Virus record (IMG/VR): IMGVR_UViG_2872688378_000003
DNA from: a virus
Lineage: Duplodnaviria > Heunggongvirae > Uroviricota > Caudoviricetes
Length of the DNA: 44,897 bases
Direction: 5' to 3' (one strand)
Shown here: one piece after another, positions 1 through 36,290 of the stretch
Position numbering within the stretch: the stretch's first letter is position 1
How the letters are laid out: each line of letters begins with the position of its first letter
Notes under the pieces: model-generated
Databases searched by the model: none
The model's input: only the letters and a program-made list of their open reading frames with translations
Told to the model about the DNA's origin: nothing
Program-made: the position numbers and the translations under genes

Positions 1-378
1 ATGGACGAACAGTGGGGCTATGTCGGTGCTAAATCGCGCCAGCGCTGGCTGTTTTACGCGTATGACAGGCTCCGGAAGACGGTTGTTGCGCACGTATTCG
101 GTGAACGCACTATGGCGACGCTGGGGCGTCTTATGAGCCTGCTGTCACCCTTTGACGTGGTGATATGGATGACGGATGGCTGGCCGCTGTATGAATCCCG
201 CCTGAAGGGAAAGCTGCACGTAATCAGCAAGCGATATACGCAGCGAATTGAGCGGCATAACCTGAATCTGAGGCAGCACCTGGCACGGCTGGGACGGAAG
301 TCGCTGTCGTTCTCAAAATCGGTGGAGCTGCATGACAAAGTCATCGGGCATTATCTGAACATAAAACACTATCAATAA
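1..378 (+). CDS. insB: IS1 transposase InsB, C-terminal part (5' end outside window)
   Basis: ORF translation ...[31 protein letters not shown] matches the IS1 InsB C-terminus as I recall it. Confidence 0.85.
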
Positions 379-393
379 GTTGGAGTCATTACC
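1..393 (+). mobile_element. IS1 insertion sequence, right-hand portion (window begins inside the element)
   Basis: insB frame runs to stop at 376-378 and is followed by the IS1 terminal inverted repeat ...GTTGGAGTCATTACC ending at 393; recognised from memory of IS1. Confidence 0.85.
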
Positions 394-686
394 ACGAGCT
401 CAACGGGGAAAGACTGAGAGAACCTAACGAAGTTTTTAAACGTTTAGGTCGAGCAATAAGATATAATTTTCAAGTGGACGATGCAAAATTTAGACGCGAT
501 AATGTAAAAGAAATAATTTCTAATTTATTCGCTAACAAAGTTGACGTTGACCATCCTGAAAATAAATACAAAGACTTTAAGGATCTCGAAGATAACGTTG
601 AAAAAAGACTTCAAAATCGCCAGGCGAAATATCAAAATGAAATTAATCAACTATCTGCGCCAGGTGTTAATTTTGATGATATTTAA
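394..686 (+). pseudogene. 3' fragment of a host ORF interrupted by IS1 (possibly yfdF)
   Basis: Frame is open from the IS1 boundary (no stop between 394 and 686), protein-like translation ...ELNGERLREPNEVFKRLGRAIRYNFQVDDAKF...; ORF track start at 474 is a GTG; gene identity inferred only from K-12 gene order (yfdF precedes mlaA). Confidence 0.4.
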
Positions 687-825
687 AATTATTTTTCCAG
701 TTTTTTGATTTTTCAACGCCTGAATATCGGAAATAGTCAGTGACGAACATCAGTATTTTTACATCATTACGTCCGGGTCATTGTCGGTTTATCTCCTTTT
801 ACTTGTGGTAATTGAGGGATAACAA

Positions 826-858
826 CAAAAAAGGTGAGTTTTGCGACTCACCTTTTTT
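826..858. terminator. Bidirectional rho-independent terminator between the truncated ORF and mlaA
   Basis: A-run, stem GGTGAGT / ACTCACC with 6-nt loop, then T-run (aaaaaaaGGTGAGTtttgcgACTCACCtttttt). Confidence 0.7.
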
Positions 859-867
859 ATTTGTTTC

Positions 868-1623
868 TTATTCAGAATCAATATCTTTTAAATCATCCTG
901 AATCGCTTGTGCGTTCGGATTTTCCTGCGGTTTGAGTTCGCCGCCATTAGCGATGAAATCATGACGCTGGAAGTACGCTTCGCGCACCATAATATAAGGA
1001 TCGGACGACTGACGCAGCAGACCATCGGAATCCAACAACTGCGCACGAGTTTCTATCCCTTCAAGCGTCCATTTACCCACAGACATCGGCCAGGTCAGCC
1101 AGGAAAGAACCGGGTAAAGACCATCCGCCATATCACCACCGTCATCACGCAGCGTGAAGCTACCGTAGAACGGTAACTGAACGTAAGGCCCATAACCCAC
1201 GCCATAATGACCAAGCGTACTACCGAAGCGGTGAGGTTCAGTCCGTTGCAGTTTCGGGTTCGCCATCCCTGCAACATCAATAAAACCGCCCATCCCCAAA
1301 ATGGTGTTCAGGAAAAAGCGGGTAAAGTGGACCATCCCCTGATAAGGGTCGCCCTGCAAGAAGTAGTTAACCATCACCGCAGGTTCTTCAAGGTTGCCAG
1401 TAAAGTTGCTCAAACCGTTACGCGCCGGTTGCGGAACATAATCACGCCAGGCGACAGCGACCGGTCGAACAATATACGGGTCTAATACATTGAAGTTGAA
1501 GTTGTACATGGTGCGGTTGAACCCTTCTAACGGGTCAGAACGCCCTTGCTGATCTGTACCGGAACTCGCACACCCCACCAGAAGCGTAGTTCCCAGAGCA
1601 AGCGCCGACAGGCGAAGCTTCAT
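868..1623 (-). CDS. mlaA: Phospholipid-binding outer-membrane lipoprotein MlaA (VacJ)
   Basis: 251-aa ORF with lipoprotein signal (LLVGCAS) and sequence matching MlaA/VacJ from memory; expected neighbour of yfdC-argW. Confidence 0.85.
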   Translation of the reverse strand: MKLRLSALALGTTLLVGCASSGTDQQGRSDPLEGFNRTMYNFNFNVLDPYIVRPVAVAWRDYVPQPARNGLSNFTGNLEEPAVMVNYFLQGDPYQGMVHFTRFFLNTILGMGGFIDVAGMANPKLQRTEPHRFGSTLGHYGVGYGPYVQLPFYGSFTLRDDGGDMADGLYPVLSWLTWPMSVGKWTLEGIETRAQLLDSDGLLRQSSDPYIMVREAYFQRHDFIANGGELKPQENPNAQAIQDDLKDIDSE

Positions 1624-1916
1624 AAATGTCTCCCTGTTTTTTTATGGCTTATGCAGTTTGCCATCCATGACGGAACGATACCGTATCCGCCTGTTTAGGT
1701 GTGGGCGATTGTAACAGCACGTCAACTGATGTCCAGACGCCCTGATTTGCTGATTTGATCATAGCCTGGTAATCGCCGCCCTGTAGGCTACTTGATTCTA
1801 TAGAAACAGAAAAAGGCAAACGCAGCCTTTTCTACATTTTCAGAGTAACTCCCGTCAGTTGCGAGCAAAAAAGCCGCTACGCTTTAGCTATACGTGCTAA
1901 TTCAAGAGAAGAGACC

Positions 1917-2849
1917 ATGGACAACGACAAAATTGATCAACACAGCGACGAAATTGAAGTTGAGAGCGAAGAAAAAGAGCGCGGCAAAAAAATAGAAATA
2001 GATGAAGACCGACTCCCCTCCCGGGCGATGGCAATTCATGAGCATATCCGCCAGGATGGTGAAAAAGAGCTGGAACGCGACGCAGTGGCGCTACTGTGGT
2101 CAGCCATTGCGGCGGGTCTGTCGATGGGCGCTTCGTTACTGGCAAAAGGGATATTTCAAGTCGAACTGGAAGGTGTGCCGGGCAGCTTCTTGCTGGAGAA
2201 TCTCGGTTATACCTTTGGTTTTATTATCGTCATTATGGCCCGCCAGCAATTATTTACCGAAAATACCGTGACTGCGGTACTACCCGTCATGCAAAAACCG
2301 ACAATGAGCAACGTCGGCTTACTTATACGGTTATGGGGCGTCGTGCTGCTGGGTAATATTCTCGGGACAGGTATTGCGGCGTGGGCATTTGAATATATGC
2401 CTATCTTCAATGAAGAAACTCGCGATGCATTTGTCAAAATCGGCATGGATGTGATGAAGAACACCCCCAGCGAGATGTTTGCCAACGCGATCATTTCCGG
2501 CTGGCTGATCGCCACTATGGTTTGGATGTTTCCTGCAGCGGGTGCGGCAAAGATTGTGGTGATTATATTGATGACCTGGCTTATTGCCCTGGGTGACACC
2601 ACCCATATCGTGGTCGGTTCTGTTGAAATCCTCTATCTGGTGTTTAACGGTACGCTGCACTGGAGCGATTTCATCTGGCCCTTCGCACTACCTACTTTAG
2701 CGGGGAACATCTGCGGCGGCACCTTTATCTTCGCGTTAATGAGTCATGCACAGATTCGTAACGACATGAGCAATAAGCGTAAAGCAGAAGCACGCCAAAA
2801 AGCAGAACGTGCGGAAAACATTAAGAAAAATTATAAAAACCCGGCATAA
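1917..2849 (+). CDS. yfdC: Formate/nitrite transporter family inner-membrane protein YfdC
   Basis: 310-aa ORF, hydrophobic multi-pass membrane protein; position immediately upstream of argW as in K-12. Confidence 0.8.
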   Translation: MDNDKIDQHSDEIEVESEEKERGKKIEIDEDRLPSRAMAIHEHIRQDGEKELERDAVALLWSAIAAGLSMGASLLAKGIFQVELEGVPGSFLLENLGYTFGFIIVIMARQQLFTENTVTAVLPVMQKPTMSNVGLLIRLWGVVLLGNILGTGIAAWAFEYMPIFNEETRDAFVKIGMDVMKNTPSEMFANAIISGWLIATMVWMFPAAGAAKIVVIILMTWLIALGDTTHIVVGSVEILYLVFNGTLHWSDFIWPFALPTLAGNICGGTFIFALMSHAQIRNDMSNKRKAEARQKAERAENIKKNYKNPA

Positions 2850-2924
2850 ATGGCGAGGGTTTAAGCAATCGAGCGGCAGCGTACTTACCCCGCACTCCAT
2901 TAGCGGGTATACTCATGCCGCATT

Positions 2925-2999
2925 GTCCTCTTAGTTAAATGGATATAACGAGCCCCTCCTAAGGGCTAATTGCAGGTTCGATTCCTGCAGGGGACACCA
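2925..2999 (+). tRNA. argW: tRNA-Arg (anticodon CCU), argW; prophage integration site (attL side)
   Basis: 75-nt sequence GTCCTCTTAGTTAAATGG...GGTTCGATTCCTGCAGGGGACACCA with T-loop GGTTCGATTCC, CCA end and anticodon loop CTCCTAA. Confidence 0.95.
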
Positions 3000-3124
3000 T
3001 TTATCAGTTCGCTCCCATCCGTACCAGTCCGCAAAATCCCCTGAATATCAAGCCTTCCGTAGATTCACAGTTCGTCATGGTTCGCGTCAGATCGTTGACA
3101 GCCGCACTCCATGACGGGTAAAAA

Positions 3125-4318
3125 GTGGATAAAATAATTTTACCCACCGGATTTTTACCCATGCTCACCGTTAAGCAGATTGAAGCAGCAAAGCCGAAAG
3201 AAAAACCATACCGCCTACTCGATGGTAATGGCCTGTACCTTTATGTCCCTGTGTCAGGGAAAAAGGTATGGCAGCTTCGCTACAAGATTGACGGTAAGGA
3301 GAAAATCCTGACCGTCGGAAAATATCCGCTAATGACTTTGCAGGAGGCAAGAGATAAAGCATGGACCGCGAGGAAAGACATCTCGGTTGGCATCGATCCG
3401 GTAAAAGCGAAAAAGGCTTCGTCTAACAACAATTCCTTTAGTGCCATTTACAAGGAATGGTACGAGCACAAGAAGCAAGTCTGGTCAGTAGGCTATGCAA
3501 CTGAACTTGCCAAAATGTTTGATGACGACATTTTACCCATCATCGGCGGTCTTGAGATTCAGGATATTGAGCCGATGCAACTGCTGGAAGTAATCCGCAG
3601 ATTTGAAGATCGCGGTGCAATGGAGCGAGCCAACAAAGCCCGCAGAAGATGCGGCGAGGTTTTCCGTTACGCTATTGTCACCGGCAGGGCTAAATATAAC
3701 CCGGCACCTGACCTTGCTGACGCCATGAAGGGGTACCGCAAGAAGAACTTCCCGTTTCTTCCTGCAGACCAGATCCCGGCATTCAATAAAGCACTGGCAA
3801 CATTTTCAGGAAGTATCGTATCGCTCATTGCCACCAAGGTTTTACGCTACACTGCCCTAAGAACGAAAGAGCTTCGTTCCATGCTATGGAAGAACGTCGA
3901 TTTTGAAAACAGGATTATCACCATCGACGCCAGTGTGATGAAAGGACGCAAAATTCATGTGGTCCCGATGTCAGACCAGGTGGTTGAACTTCTCACTACG
4001 TTAAGCTCCATCACCAAACCAGTATCAGAGTTTGTTTTTGCCGGGCGCAACGATAAGAAGAAGCCAATCTGCGAGAATGCGGTACTGCTTGTGATCAAAC
4101 AAATCGGCTATGAAGGTCTGGAAAGCGGTCACGGATTCAGGCATGAATTCAGCACGATTATGAACGAGCACGAATGGCCTGCTGACGCTATTGAAGTGCA
4201 ACTGGCACATGCCAACGGCGGATCTGTGCGCGGGATTTACAACCATGCTCAGTATCTCGATAAGCGCAGAGAAATGATGCAATGGTGGGCGGACTGGCTT
4301 GATGAAAAGGTGGAGTGA
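3125..4318 (+). CDS. intS: Tyrosine integrase, P4/IntS family (prophage integrase)
   Basis: Translation contains the characteristic N-terminal MLTVKQIEAAKPKEKPYRLLDGNGLYLYV motif and C-terminal catalytic region (...HGFRHEF...YNHAQYL); likely true start is the ATG at 3161; lies directly after argW. Confidence 0.9.
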   Translation: MDKIILPTGFLPMLTVKQIEAAKPKEKPYRLLDGNGLYLYVPVSGKKVWQLRYKIDGKEKILTVGKYPLMTLQEARDKAWTARKDISVGIDPVKAKKASSNNNSFSAIYKEWYEHKKQVWSVGYATELAKMFDDDILPIIGGLEIQDIEPMQLLEVIRRFEDRGAMERANKARRRCGEVFRYAIVTGRAKYNPAPDLADAMKGYRKKNFPFLPADQIPAFNKALATFSGSIVSLIATKVLRYTALRTKELRSMLWKNVDFENRIITIDASVMKGRKIHVVPMSDQVVELLTTLSSITKPVSEFVFAGRNDKKKPICENAVLLVIKQIGYEGLESGHGFRHEFSTIMNEHEWPADAIEVQLAHANGGSVRGIYNHAQYLDKRREMMQWWADWLDEKVE

Positions 4319-7600: not shown

Positions 7601-7953
7601 TACGCCTCCGATGTAACAGTCGTTATTCCATAGAGAGTGTCGATTTCAGCGGAAAACATGACACGTCGGGTCGTGGTATCCACCGTCGTATTGAAAGAGA
7701 GGATTGATTTAACGCCCCGCGTTTCGAGGATGCGCTTACGGATCGCCAGGTTGTAGGTTTCCGGCTTCTGCTTACCGAGTACGGACTGGATCCACGGAGT
7801 CCCTTCGGTGGTATCGAGAAACCATTGCCCATACCACAATTCGAATCGCGTTTTTACCGCCTGCGCCACTGCCTCCGGTGAGTTAATCAGCCAGGTGTCA
7901 TCACCGCTGCCAAAGGTATAATCGCCATCGGCGTCTTCACGTCTGTATCGCAT
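7600..7953 (-). CDS. Baseplate wedge protein (gp25/W-like)
   Basis: 117-aa ORF between spike and J-like genes, overlapping start/stop. Confidence 0.55.
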   Translation of the reverse strand: MRYRREDADGDYTFGSGDDTWLINSPEAVAQAVKTRFELWYGQWFLDTTEGTPWIQSVLGKQKPETYNLAIRKRILETRGVKSILSFNTTVDTTTRRVMFSAEIDTLYGITTVTSEA

Positions 7954-8708
7954 CAGTTAGGCGCTCCTGTGTTACCGCCGCCGGTCTGTACTCCGCCGTG
8001 CGTGTGCGTCATCAGGCTCTTACCACCAGCTTTTACATCGTTAGTCACCGTGACAGGGCCAAGCATCGTCGCGGTGCCGCCGCTTTCGCCCATTCCCTGA
8101 GACAGATTGCCATTAATCGTTACGTTGCCGTTCAGCGTGATAGTCGGGGATGTGATTGTTGTTCCACCTTCAGCCGTAGCCGTGAGCTGGCCCGGTGTTT
8201 GAACGGTGATGTTATGTCCTGCGGCAACCTCTACGAACGCCGCACCATCATCGGTTCGCAGCTGCGCGGCGCTGGTACTGATACCGCTGATTTTCTGTGC
8301 TTGCGACTGCGGGCCAACGATGGCGAACGCATCCGATAAATCATGCATTCTGTCATCAACCGTCTCCTGTATCCCGCCGCTCTGCCACCAGAAATCAATA
8401 CAACGATCGGCAAAAACGACAAGACACTCATCCCCAGCTTTTACCGGAAAAGTCAACGTACAGCCTCCGCCGCGCGGGAATACCACCGGCACATCCACCA
8501 GCAGCGGGTAATTTTTGGTAACGCGATTGCCGTCGTTATCCGTTTCAACGGAACGGATAGCAGGCTGCACAACCGCCGTCACCGCGTCAGGGTCGAATGA
8601 CTGAACGATGCCAGGCAAAGCGACGCGGATCTGGTTCTTTGTGGTTTCCCGTTCAGATTTGAATGTTTCAGCAAGGTCGCCGCTGCGGGTCTGGTCAGAT
8701 ACTGCCAT
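7953..8708 (-). CDS. Baseplate assembly protein V / central spike
   Basis: 251 aa with Gly/Thr-rich C-terminal repeat region (…TAEGGTTITSPTITLNGNVTINGN…) typical of spike proteins; SD GGAG upstream of ATG at 8708. Confidence 0.65.
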   Translation of the reverse strand: MAVSDQTRSGDLAETFKSERETTKNQIRVALPGIVQSFDPDAVTAVVQPAIRSVETDNDGNRVTKNYPLLVDVPVVFPRGGGCTLTFPVKAGDECLVVFADRCIDFWWQSGGIQETVDDRMHDLSDAFAIVGPQSQAQKISGISTSAAQLRTDDGAAFVEVAAGHNITVQTPGQLTATAEGGTTITSPTITLNGNVTINGNLSQGMGESGGTATMLGPVTVTNDVKAGGKSLMTHTHGGVQTGGGNTGAPN

Positions 8709-8721
8709 TTAGTAGGCTCCA

Positions 8722-8750
8722 GAAAGCAAAAAACCCGCCGGGTGGCGGGT
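8722..8750 (-). terminator. Rho-independent terminator closing the inserted two-gene cassette
   Basis: Minus strand reads AACCCGCC-ACCC-GGCGGG followed by TTTTTTGC directly after the TAA stop at 8751-8753. Confidence 0.7.
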
Positions 8751-9167
8751 TTATGAATCGTAGGTTTTCAATTTTTCGAGTTCATCAGGAGGAAGTTCTA
8801 TGAAGGTTTCCTCTGCTAATTTTATCAGCCGGGGAAGCATCGAATCAGCTTGCTGATGAGCGTTTGGGCTGATGATTGCCAATATCTGATAGTGTTCATC
8901 GATATAAAGATGCTGAGCATATACCAAAAAATTATCACATGTCCGTTCACTCAGAGATGCTTCTGTAGGCCAGGGTTTATCGCCAGGTAGCTTTAAGTGA
9001 ATTTTCCTGATGTTGGCAGCCATCGCATCATAGTTACGTTCAAAACCGCCTAACGAACCAAAACACCAGAACTGGGAACCCTTTGAAATATAATCGGCAA
9101 GCATTTGAGCATACTTATGTGCTGCAGCTAAATGACGCAATTCTCCCGTGATACTGACTTTTGCCAT
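8751..9167 (-). CDS. Hypothetical protein, second gene of inserted cassette (138 aa)
   Basis: ORF with ATG 1 nt after stop of upstream gene (TGA C ATG); average GC about 42 percent, below flanking baseplate genes; no family recognised. Confidence 0.6.
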   Translation of the reverse strand: MAKVSITGELRHLAAAHKYAQMLADYISKGSQFWCFGSLGGFERNYDAMAANIRKIHLKLPGDKPWPTEASLSERTCDNFLVYAQHLYIDEHYQILAIISPNAHQQADSMLPRLIKLAEETFIELPPDELEKLKTYDS

Positions 9168-9168
9168 G

Positions 9169-9747
9169 TCACATCCATTTAGGGGCGTTGGCTCCCAGCA
9201 TCTTATGCGATGTTGAGATCAGTTCAATAGCCTCTTCACGGGTAACATTATCTGACAAGAGTTCAGCCTGGAAAGGCTGCGATTGCCTAACTTCAGCGGC
9301 CAACTGAGTTGCAGTGTTCTCGACGGCGGTCAACGCACGAACATATTTGCGTTTTAATGGGCGCAACATTTGCAGATGGCCTTGCCACATAGGGGACCTT
9401 TCCGCTTCAGAGAACATATCCACTAAATGTCCTTTAGCATTTCGGCATGCCTTGGCAAGACCTTCGAGATGGGATAAAAACTCTTCCGGAAGCTCATCAA
9501 CAATGATTCTCCCATTTCTAAAAGCTTCGAGATGAGACATGCCTTCCTTCGCGGTATTTTCGATTTCTTGAGCGCGTGCAGCAATCGCGGTACAACGACG
9601 AAATACCTCTTCAGCATCTAATCGTTGTGGCAGTTCACAAGCATTAGAGATCAGGGGTTTGAAAGCACCGTTAACAGCTTCCTGAACCTGATTCATTTGT
9701 TGTGTAATTGTTGCCAGCGCAAATGCGTAGCTAATCGCCATACCCAA
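9169..9747 (-). CDS. Hypothetical protein, first gene of inserted cassette (about 190 aa)
   Basis: ORF track start is TTG at 9747; ATG at 9741 has SD AGAGGGA about 7 nt upstream; contains a short Rx4H motif (RNAKGH) of uncertain significance; no family recognised. Confidence 0.6.
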   Translation of the reverse strand: MGMAISYAFALATITQQMNQVQEAVNGAFKPLISNACELPQRLDAEEVFRRCTAIAARAQEIENTAKEGMSHLEAFRNGRIIVDELPEEFLSHLEGLAKACRNAKGHLVDMFSEAERSPMWQGHLQMLRPLKRKYVRALTAVENTATQLAAEVRQSQPFQAELLSDNVTREEAIELISTSHKMLGANAPKWM

Positions 9748-9909
9748 TCCCTCTGTCGTTTTAAACGACTATACACCACTTATTCAAAGTTAGCTGAGCG
9801 CTAAAAGTTCGCAAAGTTTAGTGATCATGCAACCACCTAGCAAGCGATAAAAAATCATTATTTAGTGAATGTGAACAAACTCAACACTATGCAGAAATGT
9901 AACTTTTGG
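9748..9909 (-). promoter_or_regulatory. AT-rich untranslated region upstream of the cassette, candidate promoter
   Basis: 162 bp with no ORF, AT-rich, contains sigma70-like hexamers on the minus strand (e.g. TATAGT, TTGAAT); exact -35/-10 pairing not resolvable by eye. Confidence 0.35.
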
Positions 9910-10251
9910 TTAACCATCAACCTTTTTACACGGGAAAGATCCGATAATTTTCGGTGCATCCATGCTGTTCTGCAGCAGTTGGACGTTCAGGAATCGCGTT
10001 TCGGTACCAGGGCGACGAATGTATTCAAAGCCGTAGTTGTTACCGTCTTTGGCAGGCATAATCCCCATGTCTACTTTCAAACCATTGGTACCCAGTTCGG
10101 TGATTTTTTGAGAGGTAACTCTTTCACCGTTAATTGTCGATAACTCGCCCTGGTTTGCAACCATAGTGTAGCCACCGCATTTAACCGTGAAGCCATCCGC
10201 CCACACGCTGCACGCAGAAAAGACAGCTAACAGAAAAATGATACCCCTCAT
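9910..10251 (-). CDS. Small exported protein with N-terminal signal peptide (113 aa)
   Basis: N-terminus MRGIIFLLAVFSACSVWA is a signal peptide (possible SPase I site after VWA, or atypical lipobox FSAC); SD AAGGGGA upstream; start 3 nt after hub stop. Confidence 0.6.
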   Translation of the reverse strand: MRGIIFLLAVFSACSVWADGFTVKCGGYTMVANQGELSTINGERVTSQKITELGTNGLKVDMGIMPAKDGNNYGFEYIRRPGTETRFLNVQLLQNSMDAPKIIGSFPCKKVDG

Positions 10252-10254
10252 TGC

Positions 10255-11316
10255 TCATCCCCTTTGCAAAGCCGATTGCGTATACAGATCCGCCGCGCCA
10301 CGCGCTTCGCACATCATATCCATGTACCACGCCTGGCCCCTTGTATCGCCAGTGTACATAATCCCGCGCACAATATAAACGCCATCCGTTGCGATGCTGG
10401 CAGGTTGTGCTGTGGTGCCGCTGAGCGTGATATTTCCGTCTGTGTTCTGGTCGGTGATCTGCCCACCAGCCATCGCGATATCATTGTTCGACAGCGCAGT
10501 GCGGTACACGGAAGCCTGATCCAGCTGAATAAGCCCGTTAACCCGGATGTTCGGATTAATAAGAGCGCGGACGTTTACGCCGTTACCGATAGTCTGCTGC
10601 GGCATGCCGATAAGCCCGGTGGCGCTGTTGAGCACAATCGCGTCGTGAACATACTCGTTATTCGCCACCATCTGGCGCTGACCGTCCACAAATTGCCATG
10701 TTGCGCCACATTGTCCGGCCACGTTATCCATAAGATGCCGTGTCATGCCGAACAGCACCCGCCCTCGAGGGTATACGGTAGCAGGCATTTCAGGCGTCAG
10801 TCCTTCGGTCGCGCCTTTGGCCTCAAAGTCTTTCATCAGCGCACGGTTCACATCTGCGACTGTGTAACCGGCAGCCAGCGTCTGTGAGGTTATACTGGTG
10901 GCAAATGCCAGATCAGTATCTGCTGCCTGAATCAGGACGTAGGTATCAACCGGACTGTCTTTTCCTGTGACCGAGTAGCGAATTTCTCCGCTGAAAATCA
11001 GCCCGTAGTTGCGGCCATCACTCTGGCCCACGTCCGCCGCGTCAACTTCCCGCACAGTCCCGACGTCGCTTGCCGCCACCTCCGGCGCGATACCGTCGTA
11101 ACCGGCAATCAGCCGCACTTTCGAAAACTCCTGCCCGGTAATTCGGTTCACAGTATCTGCCGAAAGGTTATAAATTTTGATAGTCCCTACCCGGGACGCG
11201 CTGCTGATGTTGAACCAGTCGATCGTAAAGGTGACTTTGAAATCACTTAGCTCAATTCCCTTACCGTTCCCGTCCACAAGCTGCAGCTCGAAATGTCTCA
11301 TCCAGTTCTGTGACAT
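10255..11316 (-). CDS. Baseplate hub protein (Mu gp44 / P-like)
   Basis: 353-aa ORF downstream of tape measure and two small tail genes, order typical of Mu-like baseplate modules. Confidence 0.55.
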   Translation of the reverse strand: MSQNWMRHFELQLVDGNGKGIELSDFKVTFTIDWFNISSASRVGTIKIYNLSADTVNRITGQEFSKVRLIAGYDGIAPEVAASDVGTVREVDAADVGQSDGRNYGLIFSGEIRYSVTGKDSPVDTYVLIQAADTDLAFATSITSQTLAAGYTVADVNRALMKDFEAKGATEGLTPEMPATVYPRGRVLFGMTRHLMDNVAGQCGATWQFVDGQRQMVANNEYVHDAIVLNSATGLIGMPQQTIGNGVNVRALINPNIRVNGLIQLDQASVYRTALSNNDIAMAGGQITDQNTDGNITLSGTTAQPASIATDGVYIVRGIMYTGDTRGQAWYMDMMCEARGAADLYTQSALQRG

Positions 11317-28875: not shown

Positions 28876-29499
28876 CTAACGTGTGACCGCATTCAAAATG
28901 TTGTCTGCGATTGACTCTTCTTTGTGGCATTGCACCACCAGAGCGTCATACAGCGGCTTAACAGTGCGTGACCAGGTGGGTTGGGTAAGGTTTGGGATTA
29001 GCATCGTCACAGCGCGATATGCTGCGCTTGCTGGCATCCTTGAATAGCCGACGCCTTTGCATCTTCCGCACTCTTTCTCGACAACTCTCCCCCACAGCTC
29101 TGTTTTGGCAATATCAACCGCACGGCCTGTACCATGGCAATCTCTGCATCTTGCCCCCGGCGTCGCGGCACTACGGCAATAATCCGCATAAGCGAATGTT
29201 GCGAGCACTTGCAGTACCTTTGCCTTAGTATTTCCTTCAAGCTTTGCCACACCACGGTATTTCCCCGATACCTTGTGTGCAAATTGCATCAGATAGTTGA
29301 TAGCCTTTTGTTTGTCATTCTGGCTGAGTTCGTGCTTACCACAGAATGCAGCCATTCCGAATCCGGCTTGTGATTGCGCCATCCCCATAGCAGCCATCAC
29401 ATCAGTACCGGAAAGAGAGTCAGAAGCCGTGGCCCGTGGTGAGTCGCTCATCATCGGGCTTTTTGGCGAATGAAATTTAGCCACGCTTTCGAGTCTCAT
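28876..29499 (-). CDS. Q: Late antiterminator Q
   Basis: 207-aa translation matches lambda Q from memory; zinc-binding Cys cluster (CRDCHGTG...CGRCKG). Confidence 0.9.

Positions 29500-35573: not shown

Positions 35574-36290
<717 letters not shown>

Follow-up and report, generated by a model that had tools for sequence, protein, structure and literature searches.

The DNA segment lying between the baseplate hub and spike genes of a SEN34-like temperate myovirus prophage of E. coli is probably a mobile toxin-antitoxin moron. The segment was analysed within a 44,897-nucleotide stretch of Caudoviricetes DNA (IMG/VR record IMGVR_UViG_2872688378_000003; hereafter the window), where a unit of ~1.1 kb (about 9850-8731, minus strand) comprises a pair of promoter-like elements, a palindromic leader, two genes, and a terminator. 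The upstream gene, ORF-A (9169-9741, minus strand; 190 aa from its ATG), encodes a putative antitoxin of a new family and the downstream gene, ORF-B (8751-9167, minus strand; 138 aa), a YafO-family toxin predicted to act as an mRNA endonuclease with a RelE/HigB-like fold. A toxin-antitoxin function headed the list of cargo types proposed in a sequence-only reading of the window, and the membership of ORF-B in the YafO family (PF13957) argues for that class.

The two genes are co-directional and separated by a single nucleotide (TGAcATG, within ...ATG TGA C ATG GCA), as had been read previously. The start of ORF-A was placed at a TTG (9747; 192 aa) in the ORF list versus the ATG that gives 190 aa, and a ribosome-binding site read from the sequence (AGAGGGA, 9748-9754, minus strand) sits 6 nt 5' of this ATG and is kept as AGAGGG or AAGGGA in related cassettes. 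The lower GC content that had been described holds for both genes, with 42.0% in ORF-B and 47.1% in ORF-A compared to 56.1% in the spike gene and 55.0% in the hub gene (44.7% for the cassette against 55-56% for its flanks). The spike gene begins at an ATG at position 8708, 3' of the cassette terminator. The cassette does interrupt the hub-to-spike order, as had been proposed, but does not directly adjoin the hub because the two are separated by a third small gene (9910-10251), which encodes a 113-aa protein with a signal peptide.

The distribution of the cassette amongst E. coli genomes is that of an optional insert at a fixed site between conserved genes. The flanking backbone was matched in 258 of 5,426 complete genomes, of which 221 lack the cassette, while the cassette was found in 37 of the 5,426, with both genes intact in every case. 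In 35 of these 37 genomes the cassette is ≥99% identical, while a longer query that included the flanks was only 96-97% identical in several, and otherwise similar E. coli prophages differ precisely over the segment 8752-9907. At least eight other gene sets, none of known function, occupy the hub-spike slot in relatives, and a PADLOC analysis of eight such cargos returned nothing convincing. The self-contained promoter-genes-terminator layout that the sequence-only reading had taken for a moron is borne out by this variable slot, by a terminator and a base composition that set the unit apart from its surroundings, and by the recurrence of the same unit in unrelated contexts, with the promoter of the unit being a candidate.

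Beyond this prophage family, an ORF-A gene precedes a YafO gene, the two being -1 to +2 nt apart, at 20 loci reached by protein relatives or by megablast. A 5' motif (see below) led to 31 viral contigs, of which 28 show this arrangement (the pair is complete in 26), and it holds wherever the retrieved DNA extends far enough. No ORF-A relative examined, down to E ~1e-4, lacks a YafO gene at this distance downstream, and the association is far beyond chance. The pair occurs in at least four different phage tail modules, including siphovirus tail modules and another baseplate module, in a lambdoid nin region, and beside the type I restriction-modification genes hsdR/hsdM in a non-phage chromosomal island, and the 5' region and a similar terminator accompany both genes in unrelated genomic contexts. 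A three-gene system including the 113-aa gene was rejected because all other contexts contain the pair without it.

The assignment of the toxin is based on a match of ORF-B residues 35-120 to Pfam PF13957 (62.8 bits, cut-off 25; E = 3.5e-17; profile positions 12-98 of 101), and a name for the toxin already exists in RefSeq. The score against NCBIfam PRK09885, the equivalog for K-12 YafO, was 29.8 bits versus a cut-off of 153, and identity to K-12 YafO is 24%; judged by these comparisons, ORF-B is a member of a diverged YafO subfamily and not the same protein as K-12 YafO. Four residues (H57, R75, P101, and H104) are invariant across ORF-B, five diverged cassette toxins, and K-12 YafO, from which we infer that H57, R75, and H104 are candidate catalytic His/Arg residues. 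ORF-B belongs to the RelE/HigB-like (BECR) fold, with sequence identity of only 9-13% to the RelE/ParE-type, BECR-fold proteins HigB, YafQ, RelE, and YoeB, a likeness that was missed by Foldseek, in which ORF-B had no match in the PDB. A sequence search of solved structures returned nothing for ORF-B, no structure having been solved for the YafO family, and ORF-B had no match in PADLOC-DB v2.

ORF-A has no family match in Pfam, NCBIfam, or PADLOC, a weak PADLOC-DB v2 match to Cas7_IIId (E = 0.018) being taken as noise, and falls in phrog_35514 (function unknown). The family is small: clustering at 90% identity gave only 34 clusters, and an exhaustive search of 1.84 billion proteins yielded 14 cluster representatives, all unannotated and from the Enterobacterales. 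An AlphaFold2 model (pLDDT 78.7) is all-alpha, with a four-helix bundle that leads through a disordered linker to a C-terminal helix and tail, both conserved (I175, S178, H179, and W189); the two loops with the highest conservation (24-41 and 109-121) are located at the same end of the helical bundle. Foldseek returned no significant PDB match for this model, only generic helical bundles with E > 0.07, and a sequence search of solved structures returned two chance-level matches (best E = 0.059). No HTH, RHH, AbrB, or Phd DNA-binding domain was found by Pfam search, no likeness to known antitoxins was detected, including K-12 YafN, and the protein is larger than typical type II antitoxins. Values of dN/dS were 0.06-0.09 for ORF-A and 0.04-0.09 across both cassette genes. 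Neither the ORF-A family nor the ORF-A/YafO pair is described in any paper found. Based on its invariable partner, ORF-A is most likely the antidote of ORF-B and the representative of a previously unnamed family, and the likely nuclease of the pair is the second protein and not the first.

The 162-bp stretch 5' of the genes (9748-9909) had been described as AT-rich, free of ORFs, and equipped with sigma-70-like hexamers. The first two properties stand, with 36.4% GC and no ORF ≥50 aa on the coding strand (on the plus strand, the overlapping ORFs 9625-9804 and 9865-10143 look spurious), but a simple sigma-70 consensus scan reported only one site there, TTGAGT-16-AATAAT (9884-9857), and the two sites observed in the region do not exceed chance (2.5 ± 1.5 expected). 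Comparison amongst cassettes points to a different element, a candidate sigma-70 promoter (9815-9843, minus strand) composed of a -35 TTGCTA (9843-9838), a 17-nt spacer, and a -10 TAAACT (9820-9815), with a predicted transcription start near 9808 and a leader of ~67 nt. Across the 5' regions of cassettes in different genomic contexts (11 distinct sequences), neither the -35 TTG nor the -10 TAnACT changes, and the spacer varies in sequence while its length is always 17 nt. The pair matches 8 of 12 consensus positions and for this reason was not reported by the consensus scan. Synonymous sites are saturated between these cassettes (pS ~0.8), yet the promoter-like elements and the palindromes described below are kept, and the conserved TTGCTA-17-TAAACT is a better-supported promoter candidate than the site from the scan.

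An invariant block, CTTTGCGAACTTTTAG (9790-9814, minus strand), follows the -10 element and leads into the first of two palindromes. Palindrome 1 (9790-9804, minus strand) consists of TTAGC (9804-9800), five variable bases, and GCTAA (9794-9790); amongst the 11 distinct sequences the arms are kept while the centre varies, and the sole change in an arm, C to T, retains a G-U pair. The pattern CTTTGCNNACTTTTAGN6GCTAA identified 31 viral contigs, and in all 31 an ORF-A start lies ~75 nt downstream. Palindrome 2 (9755-9769, minus strand; GTCGTTT-A-AAACGAC), identified through an inverted-repeat search, is directly 5' of the ribosome-binding site; none of its six pairs is lost in any of the 11 sequences, and the variation seen at three pairs is confined to U-A to U-G changes. 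There were no compensatory double changes in the leader stems among the 11 sequences (stem pairs are kept in 100% of cells, and a shuffle control was uninformative), the whole leader folds no more stably than shuffled sequence (z = 0.02), and the only two Rfam matches are at chance level, with scores that fall far short of the gathering score. The palindromes may represent either operators or leader hairpins. This comparison relied on the closer cassettes and not on the most diverged ones (48-52% and 35% protein identity), the 5' regions of which do not align with the window.

At the other end of the unit, the hairpin and T-run that had been noted ahead of the spike ribosome-binding site were recovered by both a terminator scan and an inverted-repeat search as an intrinsic terminator (8722-8752, minus strand), with the hairpin at 8752-8731 formed by AAACCCGCC-ACCC-GGCGGGTTT followed by TTTGCTTTCT (9-bp stem with 6 G-C pairs, 4-nt loop). 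This hairpin with its T-run overlaps the stop codon of ORF-B and ends ~22 nt 5' of the spike ATG, so that the terminator lies immediately ahead of the spike ribosome-binding site. At three unrelated loci (L021, L022, and L023), the YafO gene is likewise followed by a near-identical hairpin, AACCCGCC...GGCGGGTTTTTT. Phage SEN34 has an identical hairpin with different cargo, and so in this backbone the terminator may belong to the slot and not to the cassette.

The nearest characterized counterpart of the pair is yafN-yafO in the dinB operon of E. coli K-12. In both, the downstream gene belongs to PF13957 and shares the four invariant residues, and the gene order is antitoxin first and toxin second, with a gap of 2 nt in K-12 and 1 nt here. 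The partners are unrelated, however, as YafN is a 97-aa protein of the Phd/YefM type while ORF-A is a 190-aa helical protein without a known domain; further, ORF-B has ~12 additional C-terminal residues that are lacking in K-12 YafO, and the K-12 genes are part of an SOS-regulated operon while the pair here occupies a prophage cargo slot. K-12 YafO inhibits translation through mRNA cleavage (PMC2814082; PMC8546651), and by analogy both activities would be expected of ORF-B. Reports of yafO-like genes in prophage-related elements include the Salmonella prophage mTmII, where such a gene is possible toxin-antitoxin cargo and lysogeny lowers phage sensitivity (PMC9836087), and a Pseudomonas R-tailocin cluster (PMC4684702). 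The mTmII gene is different from ORF-B (435 nt, another sequence, and elsewhere in the prophage), and neither paper describes a partner of the ORF-A type.

As a genomic element, the cassette resembles the morons in the sense of Juhala and Hendrix, being an extra unit with promoter-like elements and a terminator between two late genes, with deviating base composition and patchy presence among close relatives. The slot with its many alternative small cargos also resembles the defence-cargo hotspots reported by Rousset et al. 2022 (PMC9122126), though those are located in P2 or P4 and this one at the hub-spike junction of SEN34-like myovirus prophages.

In a lysogen, the unit would be transcribed from its own promoter up to its own terminator, and ORF-A and ORF-B would be produced through coupled translation. 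ORF-A would bind and neutralise ORF-B, probably via the C-terminal I-x2-S-H-x9-W tail, which would be tethered to the helical bundle by the flexible linker. Should synthesis of the antitoxin stop, or the antitoxin be degraded, free ORF-B would cut mRNA and arrest translation in the manner of K-12 YafO (PMC2814082; PMC8546651). As payoff, the unit would most likely shield the lysogen from other phages in the manner of abortive infection, make the prophage more stable, or do both. The prophage carries a Q antiterminator gene (28876-29499), and during its own lytic growth Q-modified late transcription would continue past the terminator of the cassette and so reach the spike gene.

The payoff could also be confined to addiction, with the pair stabilising the prophage or another mobile element, or to selfish persistence, with no benefit in phage defence. 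This account draws on molecular evidence identical to that for the main reading and is not exclusive of it, and it is in keeping with the occurrence of the unit with mobile elements in every context seen, with the lack of PADLOC matches, and with a chromosomal yafNO without a known defence role (PMC2814082). It is nevertheless considered unlikely as the sole function, though the strongest of the alternatives: post-segregational killing is of little use to a single-copy integrated prophage, and in related phages the slots swap diverse small cargo, once beside type I restriction-modification, a pattern typical of defence cargo.

A more specific version of the defence function, in which ORF-A is a sensor-antitoxin of a new fold family, with its conserved loops at 24-41 and 109-121 detecting a protein of an incoming phage and thereby freeing the YafO nuclease, is more doubtful still. 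The protein sensed would perhaps be a tail component, because the unit often sits in tail modules. If this version were true, the pair would be a new direct-sensing abortive-infection system and the hub-spike slot an undescribed reservoir of such systems.

The location of the cassette within a Q-dependent late operon, where read-through would give late transcription, would allow the genes to serve the lytic cycle of the prophage itself, for example with ORF-B as a late RNase for shut-off of host translation or for lysis timing and ORF-A as its regulator. Such a role is improbable for a cassette that is missing from most close relatives (221 of 258 backbone matches), that has conserved promoter-like elements and a terminator of its own, and that recurs as a pair in an early or nin region and in a non-phage chromosomal island.

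The sequence-only reading had also pointed to a weak Rx4H motif in ORF-A (RNAKGH, R100-x4-H105 in the window copy) as a hint of a HEPN-type RNase, which would make ORF-A the toxin and ORF-B its partner, and the HepT toxin does appear amongst the weak Foldseek matches (6m6u, E = 0.08, TM 0.32/0.44). This hint was rejected because the motif is not conserved in the family: several members have K instead of R100, P0015 has L instead of H105, and the distant members P0072 and P0073, like the Serratia partner, have T...L in place of both residues. Additionally, no HEPN profile was matched in Pfam or PADLOC, the Foldseek matches are generic helical bundles, and the toxin family assignment belongs to ORF-B, leaving the HEPN assignment very remote. 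A role of both proteins as accessory baseplate or tail-assembly components, to which the position of the genes between hub and spike, their co-orientation with the late operon, and the tail modules that house the pair in other phages might point, is equally hard to credit when unrelated genes fill the slot in most relatives with near-identical hub and spike genes, the pair also occurs outside of tail modules and outside of phages, and ORF-B is a YafO/RelE-fold protein.

Prophage late operons are well known to carry toxin-antitoxin morons, and as a mobile toxin-antitoxin unit the cassette is an ordinary type of phage cargo that leaves established concepts unchanged; what is new is the family of the putative antidote. 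If confirmed, ORF-A would provide the small YafO branch of the RelE superfamily with a new antitoxin family that has no detectable relative amongst known antitoxins, and with it a clean case of partner swapping. The compact 1.1-kb unit with its conserved regulatory elements could be cloned for phage-defence tests. Further, the hub-spike junction would represent a cargo hotspot of an E. coli prophage family that is common, occurring in 258 of 5,426 complete genomes, and, as such, a practical place to seek new defence or exclusion genes.

A toxin gene of the YafO family and a gene for its putative antitoxin occupy the slot between two baseplate genes in a ~40-kb temperate prophage, carried within a segment of the E. 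coli chromosome. Based on Pfam, the prophage encodes an integrase, a CI-like repressor (35577–36290), a Q antiterminator (28876–29499), DnaB helicase, NinG, lysis genes, a portal, a capsid protein and a contractile-tail module, with the late genes on the minus strand. At the left boundary (1–4318), a host formate/nitrite transporter-like gene (1917–2849) is followed by the integrase (3125–4318, plus strand). The cassette consists of two minus-strand genes, the putative antitoxin ORF-A (9741–9169, 190 aa) and the toxin ORF-B (9167–8751, 138 aa), flanked on the same strand by the baseplate hub (10255–11316, assigned to the phrog_196 hub family with E = 9e-90) and the spike (7953–8708). Much of the anatomy described in an earlier sequence-only reading was confirmed, including the junction of the co-directional genes (TGAcATG), an AT-rich stretch 5′ of ORF-A (162 bp, 36.4% GC), a lower GC content in the two genes (42–47%) than in the hub and spike (55–56%), and a minus-strand terminator hairpin and T-run before the spike (8752–8731; 9-bp G+C-rich stem), which overlaps the stop codon of ORF-B and leaves ~22 nt before the spike start codon. 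The placement between hub and spike also held, but the cassette does not directly contact the hub, as a 113-aa minus-strand gene overlooked in that reading intervenes (9910–10251; 46.8% GC). This gene, which belongs to phrog_3443 and is labelled by PGAP in one genome as a ‘STY1065/STY2022 family phage-derived protein’, encodes a signal peptide (MRGIIFLLAVFSAC...) with a possible lipobox. It is present in most relatives, missing from one (L058) and represented by a shorter annotated gene in phage SEN34, and is probably a separate accessory gene, with a product that may act in exclusion, as a periplasmic protein or a lipoprotein.

ORF-B matches the Pfam YafO_toxin family at 62.8 bits (threshold, 25) and had already been named a YafO family toxin by PGAP. 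It shares 24% identity with K-12 YafO and falls below the NCBIfam equivalog cut-off for that protein, and by these sequence comparisons is a diverged YafO member. Four residues (H57, R75, P101, and H104) are invariant from ORF-B through K-12 YafO, and the AlphaFold2 model of ORF-B is very confident (pLDDT 94.6). All YafO proteins paired with an ORF-A-type partner carry a C-terminal extension of ~12 residues (ELPPDELEKLKTYDS in ORF-B, residues ~124–138), absent from K-12 YafO. The antitoxin might dock onto this extension.

The pairing of the two genes is obligate. For every ORF-A relative looked up (78%, 66%, 58%, 52%, 48%, and 35% identity, plus two at E ~1e-4), a YafO_toxin gene lies −1 to +2 nt 3′, and dN/dS values of 0.04–0.09, where dS was measurable, show strong purifying selection on both genes. 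ORF-A has no family in Pfam, NCBIfam or PADLOC, its PHROG is annotated as function unknown, and there was no significant match to the PDB by sequence or by fold. The family is tiny, with 34 clusters at 90% identity, all from the Enterobacterales, and 14 representatives in an exhaustive profile search of 1.84 billion proteins. The structural model (pLDDT 78.7) comprises four long helices and, after a disordered linker (157–163), a short helix at the C-terminus. A26, P29, W119, M125, R135, and L137 are invariant throughout the family, its two most distant members included, as are the C-terminal I175, S178, H179, and W189. C35 and C50, which flank the most conserved loop (residues 24–41), are invariant in all members of ≥48% identity and lost in the two most distant. 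The suggestion that an Rx4H motif (R100...H105) marks ORF-A as a HEPN-type RNase was rejected because the motif is not conserved in the family.

The cassette is mobile, occurring in the hub-spike slot of this myovirus prophage, in another baseplate module in Salmonella, in siphovirus tail modules just 5′ of the tape-measure gene (Pantoea, Serratia, and metagenomes), in a lambdoid nin region in Klebsiella, at a chromosomal site adjoining hsdR/hsdM in Serratia quinivorans, and at a site adjoining an HNH gene and a transposase. In the S. quinivorans locus (L023:6247–10573) and a related metagenome contig (L024:5183–9509), the chromosomal cassette is followed by type I restriction-modification genes, with a 1174-aa hsdR-like gene directly 3′ and then, in L024, an hsdM-like gene, the counterpart of which is cut off and unannotated in L023; this neighbourhood is defence-island-like.

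Among 5,426 complete E. coli genomes searched with megablast, the cassette flanks were found in 258 and the 1.1-kb cassette in just 37, where it was always complete. Identity was ≥99% in 35 of the 37, while several of them reached only 96–97% with a longer query that included the flanks. In prophages with different cargo, homology ends at ~8752 and ~9907, almost exactly the limits proposed from sequence, and the cassette is an insertion in the hub-spike slot. Since other prophages hold different genes in the same slot, the hub-spike junction is a cargo hotspot. Across the SEN34-like prophage family, no fewer than eight other gene sets are found in the slot (8752–9907; L002, L003, L015–L018, L056–L059), including a 243+142-aa pair, a 256+131-aa pair (in EPEC E2348/69), a DUF2335 protein (alone or with a 154-aa protein), a DUF4282 protein, a 56+184-aa pair, a single 241-aa protein, a 266-aa gene of phage YP3, and a 138-aa gene of SEN34. 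Of eight alternative cargo proteins, six had no Pfam family and none a convincing PADLOC match. The second genes of two two-gene cargos (L015:1374–1802, 142 aa; L018:1374–1769, 131 aa) have weak PADLOC matches to HEPN_IX (E ~0.009), and the HEPN idea may fit these proteins better than the present cassette.

On the sigma70-like hexamers proposed 5′ of the cassette, a simple consensus scan was uninformative (2 found, 2.5 expected), and its only hit within the intergenic stretch is at a position not conserved in other cassettes, but comparison across cassettes did identify a conserved candidate −35/−10 pair. In 11 distinct 5′ regions from different contexts, the −35 TTG (TTGCTA, 9843–9838) and TAnACT (TAAACT, 9820–9815) are kept, separated by a spacer that varies in sequence and is always 17 nt, and all share an invariant block, CTTTGC..ACTTTTAG. 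Two minus-strand palindromes follow, each with conserved arms around a variable centre, TTAGC-N5-GCTAA (palindrome 1, 9804–9790) and GTCGTT-N3-AACGAC (palindrome 2, 9769–9755), the latter preceding the ribosome-binding site. As synonymous sites among the same cassettes are saturated (pS ~0.8), conservation of these elements reflects selection. A 27-nt block pattern matched 31 viral contigs, with ORF-A ~75 nt 3′ in 31/31. The palindromes may be RNA hairpins or operators; all stem positions are paired in all sequences, every change in the four pairs that vary gives G-U, no compensatory change occurs among the sequences compared, and leader fold stability is not unusual (z = 0.02). In distant cassettes (L004:4940–5000, L007:4940–5000, L009:3370–3421, and L012:3370–3420), a terminator-like hairpin and T-run occur immediately 5′ of the antitoxin ribosome-binding site, the position held in the E. 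coli-type cassette by palindrome 2, without a T-run, and a hairpin at this point seems to be an architectural feature common to the cassettes. In three unrelated contexts (L021, L022, and L023), the YafO gene is followed by a near-identical copy of the terminator hairpin (AACCCGCC..GGCGGGTTTTTT), and this hairpin also closes the slot in SEN34, whose cargo is unrelated; it could be a shared end-point at which cargo is exchanged, or just a terminator sequence that is common.

In its mode of action, the cassette would resemble yafNO and the other type II modules of the RelE superfamily. ORF-A would neutralise ORF-B through direct binding, with its conserved C-terminal tail as the probable contact. 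In the lysogen, the cassette would be driven by its own promoter, with transcription stopping at its own terminator, while Q-modified late transcription would read through. A stop in antitoxin synthesis, or antitoxin degradation, would release ORF-B, which may then cleave mRNA and arrest translation, as reported for K-12 YafO (PMC2814082; PMC8546651). Nevertheless, the cassette is not a member of yafNO, because its toxin is no equivalog of K-12 YafO and its antitoxin belongs to a different, previously unannotated family unrelated to YafN. YafO-like cargo has been noted in the Salmonella prophage mTmII (PMC9836087), where the gene differs from ORF-B, and in a Pseudomonas tailocin cluster (PMC4684702); no paper on ORF-A or the pair was found in the literature. 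Least certain is the payoff, which might be abortive-infection defence or stabilisation of the element, as suggested by genomic context (the cargo hotspots and one restriction-modification neighbour). A toxin-antitoxin moron as such would not surprise a specialist, and the useful leads are the new antitoxin family, the well-defined regulatory region and the cargo hotspot.
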